DNA of 64,000 nt. Source: a virus (Duplodnaviria > Caudoviricetes). The stretch is taken from IMG/VR virus record IMGVR_UViG_2511231106_000004, positions 47,356-111,355 of that record; one strand, written 5' to 3'. This document shows, in pieces, positions 3,630 through 12,633 of the stretch; position 1 is the first letter of the stretch; each line of letters begins with the position of its first letter. The position numbers were made by a program, and so were the translations under genes. The notes under the pieces are model-generated. The model saw only the letters and a list, made by a program, of their open reading frames with translations. It was not told the DNA's origin and ran no database searches.

Positions 3630-4082
3630 CTAGTGTTTCGCTACTGCATTTTCCTGCAATGTACTGCGCTCCTCCAAAATTTTTTCAACGGCCGCCACCC
3701 CATCACTGTGGACGGCGTAGATCCACCGGATCCCTTTGCCCATGCTCCGGGCAATGTCCTCCCAGGCATCGAAGTGGATGTACCGGTCCCGGAGGACCAG
3801 CCGCTGGGCTTCGTCTTCCACCCGGTCGATGACCTGGCCAATCTCATACTTCAGGTCCACCAGCCGGTCCACTTCCCGGTTGATTTCCTGCTCCCGCTCC
3901 CAGATCTTCTCGATGGTCCGGACGAAGGGGGCTTCCGTGGGCCGGTTGGGGTTGTGGCTTTCTTCCAGCCCGGCTGCTGAGATGCCCAGGCAAAGATGCC
4001 GGAGCTCGGCCACTTCCCGAAGATTGCTCTCTATTTTCTTATCCAGGTAGAATCCCTGTTGCAAGTACTCTTTCGCGTTCAT
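3630..4082 (-). CDS. DUF1492 / RinA-ArpU-like late transcriptional activator
   Basis: AKEYLQQ N-terminus, VLRDRYI..WEDIARSM C-terminal HTH; paralog of 52215..52652; position between SNF2 and HNH. Confidence 0.75.
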   Translation of the reverse strand: MNAKEYLQQGFYLDKKIESNLREVAELRHLCLGISAAGLEESHNPNRPTEAPFVRTIEKIWEREQEINREVDRLVDLKYEIGQVIDRVEDEAQRLVLRDRYIHFDAWEDIARSMGKGIRWIYAVHSDGVAAVEKILEERSTLQENAVAKH

Positions 4083-9230: not shown

Positions 9231-10005
9231 GCCCCTTTTCGATAAGCGGATAGTTGCCTTCGGACGTCATCAGCTGATAAATAAACAGTCGTCCCTTCTG
9301 GGTCCAGTACATATAAGTGCGGTTATGGGGAATGCCATAGCTATCGGGAACACTGTATGTCTTGGTGCTGGTGTACCCCATGGGAGCGTATTTCTGGTAG
9401 AGCAGCCATATTTTTCCCTGCTTGTACTGGATTCCGTGTTCATGGAGCCAGTTATTCATATGCCGGGCAGACCATCCATAATCCTTTGCAATGACCGAAG
9501 TCGGAACCAGATCTTTGCATTGAAGGACCAGATCGTAGTAGCTTGCCTTCGGCTGGAGCTCTGCGATCTGCTGCTTCTGAGCAGCTGCCAAAAGTTCCAT
9601 GGATTCACGCCGTTCCCGTTCTTCCTTGAGCTTAGTAAAGACTGCAATGGCAAGGTCCGGATTATCAAGGATAGCTTCCGTTGCATACAGACCGGATTGG
9701 CGGATAGAAGGAATGACTTTGTGTGTTACCCATCTTTTAAATGCCCTGGCTTCAGGTTTCCGGCTGCTGAGAATCAGGGTGTAGAGTCCCGGCTCATTCA
9801 CAACACGTTTTTCCGGATTGCCAGGAATACCCTCGGTTAAAACTAGGGTATTCTTTTCATCGTCATCCAGCCTCGAAAGAGCATCGCTGGGGTTGGCAAT
9901 ACCAAGGATGCGGCACACATCGGCGGCCACGAACCATGGCTCTCCGTTCACAACAGCTGTCCGCACATCCATCCCGTTATAAATGAAGTCTTTTGTTGTA
10001 GTCAT
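9208..10005 (-). CDS. Phage antirepressor, BRO-N plus KilAC/ANT
   Basis: EPWFVAADVCRIL, VNEPGLY, FKRWVT, QPKASYYD, WTQKGRLFIY. Confidence 0.9.
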   Translation of the reverse strand: MTTTKDFIYNGMDVRTAVVNGEPWFVAADVCRILGIANPSDALSRLDDDEKNTLVLTEGIPGNPEKRVVNEPGLYTLILSSRKPEARAFKRWVTHKVIPSIRQSGLYATEAILDNPDLAIAVFTKLKEERERRESMELLAAAQKQQIAELQPKASYYDLVLQCKDLVPTSVIAKDYGWSARHMNNWLHEHGIQYKQGKIWLLYQKYAPMGYTSTKTYSVPDSYGIPHNRTYMYWTQKGRLFIYQLMTSEGNYPLIEKGRGDSGEI

Positions 10006-10068
10006 TTTGATGACCTCCTTGAAAGTAAGTTTGGAATTGTTTTCCTATTCATTAGCCAGGAGAACCCG

Positions 10069-10692
10069 TCAAATCTGACGGTTTCCAAAAAATTCCTGTA
10101 ATTTTTTCTTTGCTCGCTTCAGCTTCTGGGTGATATTGTTTTCATTGGCACCTGTTCTGGCAGCATATGCCCGGACGGATTCTCCATCGATATAGACAGC
10201 AATGACAGCTTCTGCCCATTCCGTTTTCTTGGCCAATGCGATCCTGATGGTTTGCTTGGTCTCTTCATCGCTGGCTTCGCGATCCCGTTCCACTTCATCC
10301 CGGCTCACAAGACTCATATCCGGCATTGCCTTTCCATTCCGTTTGCATCCGCTCCCAGCAACTGCACAACCGCAGGTATCAGGAGCATCTTCGATGGGAT
10401 TCGCCAAGCTGATATCTTCTTCATCCCTTCCCTGATAATTCGGGAACTCACTTCTTCTGCGGTGCTCCCTGTGCCAATCATTGTAGAGGGGTTTGTTGAA
10501 GTCTTCGTTCATGATTTCCTGGGCACTGCGCCGGGTAACTTTTTCCCCTTCCTTTGCCGCCTGTTTTCTCAGTTCGTAATCCCGCTCGATCATGATCTGA
10601 CAGTCACCTTCAGGGACTTCCACTACCGTGACCACTGGTGCTTTCGATTCATCCCAACTGTAGTGTTTGACTCTGATTTTCATTTTTGGCAT
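10069..10692 (-). CDS. Sigma-70 region 4-like transcription factor
   Basis: C-terminal HTH (GESVRAYAARTGANENNITQKLKRAKKKL); first gene of early operon, same slot as 62605..63105; start at 10692 or 10683. Confidence 0.65.
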   Translation of the reverse strand: MPKMKIRVKHYSWDESKAPVVTVVEVPEGDCQIMIERDYELRKQAAKEGEKVTRRSAQEIMNEDFNKPLYNDWHREHRRRSEFPNYQGRDEEDISLANPIEDAPDTCGCAVAGSGCKRNGKAMPDMSLVSRDEVERDREASDEETKQTIRIALAKKTEWAEAVIAVYIDGESVRAYAARTGANENNITQKLKRAKKKLQEFFGNRQI

Positions 10693-10864
10693 CCTTTCCG
10701 TCCGTGCCAGAGGACGAAGGGATGCCAAAAAGACCTGCAGGGAATGTCCCCACAGGTCCCAAACGGCCAAAATGGCGCACGGAAACAAACGGTGGGGGCA
10801 TTTCCATTCCTGCCCACCGCATCACTGCGGTGATCCAGAACTGTCTATGCATCCCATCGTCCTC
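10683..10864 (-). promoter_or_regulatory. Structured 5' leader: RBS-sequestering hairpin plus competing upstream strand
   Basis: Hairpin 10683-10731 covers GAAAGG and ATG; 10849-10864 is 15/16 complementary to its 5' arm (10710-10725). Confidence 0.6.
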
Positions 10865-11241
10865 ATGCGCATCTCGGACAACAGAGATTTTTTTCGAGTG
10901 CCTGAGCACTCATATGGAAGCAGGACTGCCTGCTGCCGTATCAATGTTCAGACTATCCGTCCAGCTTTTGGAATACCCGCTTGCTGGTCGGTCATAATGA
11001 AATCGAACTTACTGATTGCAGATTATATTTCTGCATTTGCGGTATTCAGATTCACAGCCACACAGAAAATTCCACACATGCATGGTATAATGTTAGAAAA
11101 CCAGTAGTCACACTTCCTTCCACCTCCCGTCTTCAATTTCTGATTTCATCCTATTCTTGATAAGGTTACTGTCAATCCGTAGTCCGGGTGGTTAAGGTTA
11201 CTAACGATACTTAAGCTTACTTTTTTTCAGGAGGTACTGTT

Positions 11242-12633
11242 ATGCCCTCACAAAACAACTTCCACGTTCCCCATTTATGCGGTGGTATCCTGTTCAATCT
11301 TTTACTGGAAACAAGAAAAACACGCGGAAAAATCCGTGACAGGGCACATGGCGGAACAGACGGTCTTTCTGATTTGGATGTATATATAGGACTTGTAAAT
11401 GTTGTAGCTGGCAATGACTGGAAAGATGTTGACGGGACAACAAAAAATAAATGTGTATCTAACTATAAAAGGTGCGTGGACAGCACAGGTTCATATGTTC
11501 CTTTTACTGATGAGGTTTTTAGGAAAGCCTTCGATTCGGAATACAATAAAAAAAGCCCTGCCCTCCTTGAAAGGATGGCAAGGTTCATAGAACAGTATTT
11601 GAGTCTTGAAAAGTGCAAGTGGCTTGGCAAAGCATTGATTGAAATCATGCAAAAAGACCCTTCAATCAATGATGATGCCGAAATTGCTGTAGACTTTGGA
11701 CAAAATATTTCTGTAAAAAAACTGCATGAGGCAAAGAACATTCACTTTTTGCCTTTTTTCCTAAGCGTACTGCATTACGTAATCGATAATTGCCCTGACT
11801 GCGAATCCGGGCGGTCCACCTTTGAAACCTGGTATTGCCAAGTTGGTCCGAAAGCGCCATGGAAACCCAAACATGATGTACTCAGTAAACTCGGTGGCAC
11901 CATCGGCGATATGGAAGTGTCAGTGAATCTGGAAGTTCAGAAAGCCATTACGATAAAAGATGCAGAACATAGAAATTCCGAGAGTACATCTTCTGCAGAT
12001 GAATGCTCATCGGAAAAGCCAGATAAAAATAATGATATTCTTTCATCCGAATCCCCGCTTTCCAACCGTGATACCACTCTTTTACCCCGGCTGGCGAAGG
12101 GATTCAACAAAATATTGAAGTTTGCCAAAGACACGGACCTCAGTATAGAACGTATGCCTTCCGAAATTCTGAATACCTTTGAGACCCTGTATAATGAATG
12201 GAAGGATCAAGACACGGACTTTAAAGATCCGGAACTGAATAAATTGAAATATGACATTCTAAATACATTGTATTGGTATATCAACTTCTGGGGAACTCAT
12301 CTTTGGCTCAACGATGATTCTGATTGCTTTGTCCACCTAAAAAATACGTACAAAGATTCCTGGAAAAAAGAAGGAGAACTTCGTCAGCAGGCCATGAAGG
12401 ACAGAGAAGCTTTCACCCGTCTGCATGAAAGGCTTTGTCGGTATATCATAGACTTTGATATCGATCTAAACAAAACTGAACCAGTTGAAGCCAAGGTCGT
12501 AGAAGAAACGCCGCCTCTGGAAAATAATCAAGGCGGCAGCCGGACTACAATTATCGAGCACCAGACCAATATCGGCCACAGTGTGTCAAAGACATATAAC
12601 ATAAAGGACAGCACTGTCACATTTAATGATTAA
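11242..12633 (+). CDS. Uncharacterised 463 aa protein with C-terminal amyloid-like motif
   Basis: GGAGG RBS, long low-GC ORF; ends QTNIGHSVSKTYNIKDSTVTFND. Confidence 0.85.
   Translation: MPSQNNFHVPHLCGGILFNLLLETRKTRGKIRDRAHGGTDGLSDLDVYIGLVNVVAGNDWKDVDGTTKNKCVSNYKRCVDSTGSYVPFTDEVFRKAFDSEYNKKSPALLERMARFIEQYLSLEKCKWLGKALIEIMQKDPSINDDAEIAVDFGQNISVKKLHEAKNIHFLPFFLSVLHYVIDNCPDCESGRSTFETWYCQVGPKAPWKPKHDVLSKLGGTIGDMEVSVNLEVQKAITIKDAEHRNSESTSSADECSSEKPDKNNDILSSESPLSNRDTTLLPRLAKGFNKILKFAKDTDLSIERMPSEILNTFETLYNEWKDQDTDFKDPELNKLKYDILNTLYWYINFWGTHLWLNDDSDCFVHLKNTYKDSWKKEGELRQQAMKDREAFTRLHERLCRYIIDFDIDLNKTEPVEAKVVEETPPLENNQGGSRTTIIEHQTNIGHSVSKTYNIKDSTVTFND

Follow-up and report, generated by a model that had tools for sequence, protein, structure and literature searches.

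Upstream of the first gene of the lytic operon of a prophage we find an RNA leader of about 215 nt with four strands, here called X, Y, Z and W. Strand Z can pair either with X or with W, the two pairings exclude each other, and the strands are conserved and covary in related prophages. We consider it likely that the leader is a cis-acting switch with two alternative folds that controls the gene behind it; judging from the sequence, it would act on translation and probably also on termination. The window, that is, the whole stretch of 64,000 nt that we analysed, is part of an Acidaminococcus fermentans provirus, and the leader is kept in more than 150 Firmicutes (Bacillota) prophages.

Anatomy and folding of the leader

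The leader RNA extends from about 10890 to 10684 on the minus strand, and the start ATG of the gene follows at 10683-10681 (-). The positions of its parts are collected in Table 1. Starting from the 5' side, a short conserved block lies between a palindromic hairpin and the 5' strand of helix P1, which closes a rod-like domain containing X, the hairpin P3 and Y. In our alignment of 91 leaders, 67-87% of the P1 cells are paired over three segments. Hairpin T, which is G+C-rich and has five U after its stem in the window, lies between Y and Z and inside the X:Z span. Z and W, separated by a loop of 8 nt, form the hairpin over the ribosome binding site (RBS).

Table 1. Features of the leader and of the gene that it precedes. 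All leader coordinates are given for the sense strand of the gene 10683..10069, the minus strand.
Feature	Position	Strand	Basis
Palindromic hairpin	10896..10911	-	columns 15-29 of alignment A2
P1, 5' strand	10866..10879	-	in MFE fold; little covariation
P1, 3' strand	10765..10779	-	in MFE fold; little covariation
Strand X, putative anti-sequestor; partner Y (OFF) or Z (ON)	10849..10864	-	repeat search, covariation, column scan, RNAalifold
14-codon ORF overlapping X	10822..10866	-	exists in window; ATG in 5/91 leaders
P3, hairpin between X and Y, variable sequence	10807..10840	-	covariation
Strand Y, local partner of X in the OFF fold	10789..10802	-	pairing; divergent classes read by hand
Hairpin T with U tract, terminator-like	10727..10760	-	covariation, fold energy
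Strand Z, anti-SD, 5' arm of RBS hairpin; partner W (OFF) or X (ON)	10710..10726	-	folding, repeats, covariation
Strand W, 3' arm of RBS hairpin, holds the SD (10692-10699)	10688..10703	-	covariation, local folds
Gene behind the leader, putatively regulated by it, 204 aa, C-terminal sigma-70 region-4-like HTH	10069..10683	-	Pfam, TIGR02937, AlphaFold

The initial annotation of this region had claimed that the RBS and the AUG are buried in a hairpin of the mRNA, and that a strand upstream is complementary to the 5' arm of this hairpin at 15 of 16 positions. Both claims are confirmed. An inverted-repeat search of the window gave the arms of the hairpin as 10683-10698 and 10716-10731, with the Shine-Dalgarno sequence (SD) and the A of the ATG (10683) inside the stem. 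In a context of 76 nt the hairpin folds with -28.3 kcal/mol (z = -4.7), and none of 200 shuffled sequences folds as well. Strand X matches 10710-10725 over 16 nt with 94% complementarity (15/16) and a spacing of 123 nt. By hand arithmetic, a fixed 16-mer is matched at 15 of 16 positions by chance with a probability of about 1e-8 per position and about 3e-6 over 250 nt. When a leader of 251 nt is folded as a whole (-107.7 kcal/mol, z = -5.6), X is paired with Y, T is formed and Z is paired with W. What the initial annotation had observed holds and, by the recurrence and covariation of its three strands in related leaders, lies beyond chance; what it had made of the observation is borne out in part, as described below.

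Two further elements were seen. The palindromic hairpin adjoins the 5' side of the conserved leader; its sequence varies between elements, and its self-complementarity is always kept. It may serve as an operator whose specificity varies, or as a protective stem-loop at the 5' end. In the clade of the window, the segment 10776-10785, which lies between Y and the P1 3' strand, is complementary to W (10695-10704) at 9 of 10 positions. This segment could be a third partner of W that re-sequesters the SD, a point against the proposed switch.

Conservation across prophages

Protein searches of IMG/VR and of GTDB genomes gave about 155 loci. They span Negativicutes, many Clostridia, Erysipelotrichia and Bacilli, the last represented by Enterococcus, Heyndrickxia, Lacticigenium and Streptococcus. 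We searched for the leader upstream of the homologues with an nhmmer profile made from five leaders. At most loci the full leader is found directly upstream of the homologue with 100-250 bits, although protein identity to the window's product is only about 36%. The alignment used below, A2, holds 91 non-redundant leaders. Divergent classes, which are loci missed by the nucleotide profile and whose proteins have a different N-terminus, were examined apart from it.

We also scanned IMG/VR with the X motif alone. The scan hit 59 sites; the whole leader is present at 56 of them, and at 41 a homologue of the gene follows 170-190 nt downstream. At 13 of the 59 sites other small proteins follow, and Sigma70_r4 was found in 3 of the 5 that were tested. 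The leader thus seems to be a portable module which is exchanged between regulators with a region 4 and is more strongly conserved than the proteins behind it. The loci with such other proteins include L203:7839-8354, L208:10382-10984, L209:2555-3082, L179:8508-9230 and L204:2888-3382 (three of these five with Sigma70_r4), and none of the five proteins has a BLAST relation to that of the window. On the viral contig IMGVR_UViG_3300028634_000502 (101 kb) there are two copies of the leader (L198 and L225), which suggests tandem or nested related elements.

Comparative evidence for the helices

When all pairs of columns were scanned without bias, the longest conserved helix free of gaps was X:Z (12 bp), followed by T (11 bp), and Z:W was recovered as well (7 bp). 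The consensus that RNAalifold gives unaided contains X:Z, P3 and T. The 14 pairs of X:Z have 96.3% of their cells paired, and 4 of them show changes on both sides (n = 91), with compensation in columns 79-238 (GC 66, AU 12), 80-237 (CG 63, UA 17, AU 2) and 86-232 (UA 78, CG 5). The X:Z scores were reached by none of 500 shuffles, and pairing of X:Z falls to 33-46% if the partner strands are slid out of register; over all helices counted (X:Z, P3, T and Z:W), the shuffles likewise stay short of the real values, and sliding leaves 31-46%.

Z:W is paired in about 95% of the cells, and compensation occurs at 231-269 (UA 54, CG 24) and 232-268 (AU 71, GC 12). Since X:Z and Z:W use the same Z columns (230-242), the two helices cannot coexist. 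Where Z varies, W tracks it with Watson-Crick changes and X mostly stays paired via G-U. Among the other helices, P3 has changes on both sides at 11 of its 12 pairs, and the stem of T (10 pairs, 96.4% paired) at 5 of 10. The idea of a two-state RNA switch over the start of the gene, put forward in the initial annotation, is strengthened by these results: two exclusive helices both carry compensatory changes, and the same three strands recur and covary in the homologous leaders, the divergent classes included.

The pairing of X with Y looks different. It is 95.8% paired and nearly invariant within A2, and it is imperfect, with one conserved mismatch and one bulge. Where X varies in A2, one of two neighbouring X:Y pairs is always lost, so that mismatch and bulge persist. 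Because of this near-invariance, the support for X:Y comes from the divergent classes, whose sequences we read by hand: there Y changes along with X, and again one mismatch is left. In most relatives X:Z can be extended beyond X: the nucleotides on the 3' side of X are complementary to the U tract and to the base of T (95% paired, barely covarying). This extension is only about 4 bp long in the window, and in the related locus L162 there is a continuous helix from the base of T to Z with 23 of 24 positions paired.

The divergent classes retain a strand, located 125-150 nt upstream, with which the anti-SD region forms 10-14 bp in quite different sequences. The duplex energies are 3-6 sd below those of shuffles in most of these loci; on long windows RNAduplex gave over-extended duplexes, and a gapless search chose other helices in six divergent loci. 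No X:Z signal appeared in the duplex analysis of the related loci L076 and L166. One divergent class (L010, L087, L133 and L146) is without a clear terminator and U tract; in these loci the bases just 5' of X show a long-range pairing of 12-13 bp with the equivalent of the T 5' arm.

Four related motif copies in both orientations beside a promoter region might also be read as DNA repeats, where X, W and the complements of Y and Z serve as operator half-sites of a DNA-binding protein. We regard this as hardly credible. The count of G-U over A-C cells is strand specific (181 vs 24 in X:Z, 157 vs 20 in T), which places the structure in the RNA of the sense strand and argues against operator repeats. 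Furthermore, when X changes, it is Z that changes to match it and not Y or W. The arms have a length of 14-24 nt, and the SD and the terminator are integral parts of the arrangement.

Some other pairings were considered and rejected. A kissing pair between bases 5' of Y and the loop of T, a pairing of the U tract with the SD, and a pairing of the conserved 5' block with X are all highly complementary with essentially no covariation. If Y or P3 paired as an antiterminator with the 5' arm of T, only 4-6 bp would form, and these are not conserved (column scan and hand check). The leader is not an N-terminal coding extension of the gene either, as the frame is open for at least 190 nt in only 12 of the 91 leaders.

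Energetics of the two folds and the terminator-like hairpin

With a nested-only model, which ignores pseudoknots and ribosome binding, the fold with X:Y, T and Z:W (the OFF fold) is the MFE structure in 69 of the 91 full leaders, and the best fold that contains X:Z (the ON fold) lies on average 7.8 kcal/mol above it. If the RNA ends just after Z and W is missing, the mean ON/OFF difference is -1.1 kcal/mol, and X:Z is better in 55 of 91, often with T opened. Such near-equal energies before W is made are as expected of a switch whose outcome depends on kinetics or on a modest additional input. In local folds the GGA of the SD is paired in 88 of 91 leaders.

These numbers bear on a simpler explanation, in which the leader senses no signal and X:Z is the native fold of full-length early transcripts. 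Z:W would then silence only RNAs that lack X, such as read-in transcripts, processed fragments or internal starts, and transcripts from the proper early promoter would be translated. This agrees with X:Z having the strongest covariation and being at least as stable as X:Y in 55 of 91 leaders before W. However, with W present the OFF fold is the MFE structure in 69 of 91, and it is difficult to see why a competitor Y should be conserved, and kept imperfect in each class, if there were no switching. On balance we find such a constitutive activator unlikely.

Hairpin T has a mean folding energy of -15 kcal/mol, and in 89 of 91 leaders 5-6 of the next 8 nt are U. With a G+C-rich, covarying stem and a U tract it has the features of an intrinsic (Rho-independent) terminator, except in one divergent class. 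A simple scan did not pick it up. We infer from these features that T may terminate transcription.

Short open reading frames in the leader

The upstream strand had been noted to lie in an ORF of 14 codons, and control by translational attenuation had been considered. The ORF is present in the window (10866..10822), but its ATG is found in only 5 of the 91 homologous leaders, and the others have ATA, ATT or ATC. It is specific to the clade of the window and probably non-functional, and control through this ORF or its peptide is not supported.

A second candidate for a leader peptide lies in Y, where an AUG is present in 91 of 91 leaders (A2 columns 139-150, window 10800-10789), followed by nearly invariant Pro-Pro codons. 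In 46 of 91 this ORF of 4-6 codons stops right after Pro-Pro. A ribosome stalled on either ORF would free X. On the other hand, the mini-ORF in Y has a variable length and no good SD or fixed stop, the OFF fold engages its AUG and SD-like bases in pairs, and an AUG in Y is missing from divergent classes that retain the switch. The invariance of AUG and Pro-Pro is explained by the pairing of Y with X. Together with the absence of the ATG over X from most leaders, this makes attenuation by a leader peptide very improbable.

The gene behind the leader and its genomic context

The gene had been described as sigma-like, and this description is valid for region 4 only. Its product of 204 aa matches Pfam Sigma70_r4_2 (E 9e-5) and TIGR02937 (E 5e-7), both below the curated cut-offs. 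In the AlphaFold model the C-terminal domain has a pLDDT of 86-90 and the N-terminal half a low pLDDT. The best fold matches are all region 4 of ECF sigma factors (TM to target up to 0.76-0.78 over 57-59 columns, with weak E of about 0.1-0.5). By domain and structure searches we were not able to recognise region 2 in the N-terminal half.

The gene stands at the head of a long lytic operon on one strand. Downstream on the same strand we find a Bro-N/KilAC antirepressor, DUF7768, a D5_N/P4-type primase, an SNF2 helicase, HNH, the small terminase and a ParB-methylase. The Streptococcus phage Javan630 has the same layout, with a divergent ATPase module, the leader, the homologue, the antirepressor and the primase, then about 40 kb of genes on one strand and serine recombinases at the far end. 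No CI-type repressor is found beside the leader of Javan630. The annotated start of its homologue (L169, MK448997, 3977-4519) is at 4067, which is 90 nt inside the ORF; the start at 3977 follows the RBS hairpin. An ORF of 47 aa, very rich in lysine and serine, lies just upstream of the leader in this phage (L169 3531-3674) and also in L006, and is absent from the window. Its product could be an RNA-binding peptide.

The gene content agrees with the Phi1207.3 family (PMC4260502). A term search of the text of this article gave no mention of a repressor, a sigma factor or lysogeny control. We found nothing in a literature search for a described leader or regulator of Phi1207.3/Javan-like phages.

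Promoter scans of the window and its relatives did not give a sigma-70 promoter at a consistent position for the leader. Weak -10-like words are found directly ahead of the conserved block, or else some 35 nt higher up and ahead of the variable hairpin; about one third of the relatives have a -10-like word immediately upstream of the palindromic hairpin. In the intergenic region of 560 nt there are also an extended -10-like word at 11083-11092 (+), facing the divergent defence-like operon, and a promoter-like TTGACA / 16 nt / TAGGAT at 11175-11148 (-), about 250 nt upstream of the conserved leader.

Discussion

We propose the following mechanism for a switch with two folds. In the OFF state X would pair with Y in the rod that is closed by P1 and capped by P3, hairpin T would form, and Z:W would bury the Shine-Dalgarno sequence and the AUG. 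In the ON state X would pair with Z across a distance of about 125 nt and W would become free for the ribosome. In most relatives the few bases that follow X would in this state take up the U tract and the base of T as well, so the ON fold should also weaken the terminator. OFF is presumably the default, because it is the fold of lowest energy and because X:Y is transcribed first. An input that keeps X away from Y would then switch on expression; a small ligand, a host factor that acts on the X:Y rod and the kinetics of transcription are candidates for it. Since the strands are nearly identical although the proteins differ and the hosts span a phylum, we favour either kinetic control or a host-derived signal, be it a small molecule or some general factor that acts on the X:Y rod.

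In the window region 9500-12000, cmscan of Rfam gave neither C4 nor any other family at E <= 1, and in 12 related loci it gave nothing at E <= 0.01. A hit to mir-204 was below the threshold and was discarded as spurious. The T-box leader model likewise had no match in the window region and the 12 related loci. As far as sequence comparison goes, the leader is a new RNA family, a structured regulatory RNA absent from Rfam.

The initial annotation had been reminded of the RNA-based immunity of P1 and P4. In P1/P7 c4 and P4 CI a processed small RNA represses by pairing with targets in the early transcript. The likeness consists of an early phage leader with complementary repeats near the RBS, upstream of an antirepressor, and of a possible short terminated RNA. 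Unlike these RNAs, however, our leader has no match to them in sequence or structure, and the predicted pairing opens the RBS instead of blocking it. The suggested kinship with the c4 family thus finds no support in Rfam, in the window region or in the related loci.

A trans-acting immunity RNA of this type can be imagined nevertheless: an RNA of about 185 nt that ends at T and acts through X or Y on other copies of the leader, either in its own read-through transcripts or in those of a superinfecting relative. The rod followed by a terminator does resemble a self-contained small RNA, no CI-type repressor adjoins the leader in Javan630, and an antirepressor gene follows downstream, as in P1 immI. 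We still judge it decidedly improbable. Apart from the missing Rfam c4 match, pairing of X with Z would activate rather than repress, and X is already paired with Y in the short RNA. In addition, no second target site was found in the provirus: a search for another copy of the gene or of the X motif gave nothing beyond chance.

In translational riboswitch platforms of the thiM TPP and SAM-II type (anti-anti-SD/anti-SD/SD), as here, three competing strands decide on the access to the SD, a structured domain upstream contains the anti-anti-SD strand, and the alternative folds are nearly isoenergetic. In contrast to them, the anti-sequestor of our leader would reach its partner about 125 nt away, beyond a terminator-like hairpin; conservation is found mainly in the four strands and not in junctions, and there is no Rfam family. 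In the leader of rpoS an RBS hairpin is opened by DsrA, RprA or ArcZ, an anti-antisense activation of the mRNA of a sigma factor. Here, too, the RBS hairpin of a sigma-type regulator would be opened by a strand that pairs with its 5' arm, but this strand belongs to the mRNA itself, an sRNA of the Hfq type is not implied, and the leader occurs in Gram-positive hosts.

The leaders of trp and ermC are the classical attenuators with four strands, in which the 3:4 pair is a terminator or an RBS hairpin. Our leader shares the four strands, the mutually exclusive folds and the terminator or RBS hairpin as 3:4 pair. It differs in that the alternative pair is 1:3 and not 2:3, and it has no conserved leader peptide. 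The tac/fbi/ucb switches of the hok mRNA depend on 3' processing and are part of a toxin-antitoxin system. They resemble the leader insofar as the long-range pairing of an upstream element decides on the opening of a downstream RBS; nothing at our leader points to 3' processing or to a toxin-antitoxin system.

The gene may be under riboswitch-like control, which the initial annotation had mentioned as well. Mutually exclusive, conserved helices in the expression platform, one feature of riboswitches, are present here as X:Z and Z:W. The rod formed by P1, X:Y and P3 is conserved, and no known Rfam aptamer matches it. That the leader is better conserved than its protein and is attached to several unrelated region-4 proteins points to a signal common to many hosts. 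A tentative further reading, to which we give a small though real chance, is that the rod serves as the aptamer for a class of riboswitches not yet described, or that a universal host factor binds to it; Phi1207.3/Javan-like prophages of many Bacillota could in this way directly read a signal of the host.

The leader heads an operon of about 40 kb on one strand, in a phage family that is common in gut and pathogenic Firmicutes, often with resistance genes (Phi1207.3, Phim46.1 and Javan prophages; PMC4260502). With it, a large and clean candidate family joins the known structured regulatory RNAs. A switch in the RNA of the first regulator would offer a concrete, testable handle on the question of why such prophages stay silent or fire. 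If the rod is indeed an aptamer or the site of a host factor, the whole lytic operon would be gated at both termination and translation, and the decision between lysis and lysogeny would be based on RNA, without a CI-type repressor next to the early promoter.
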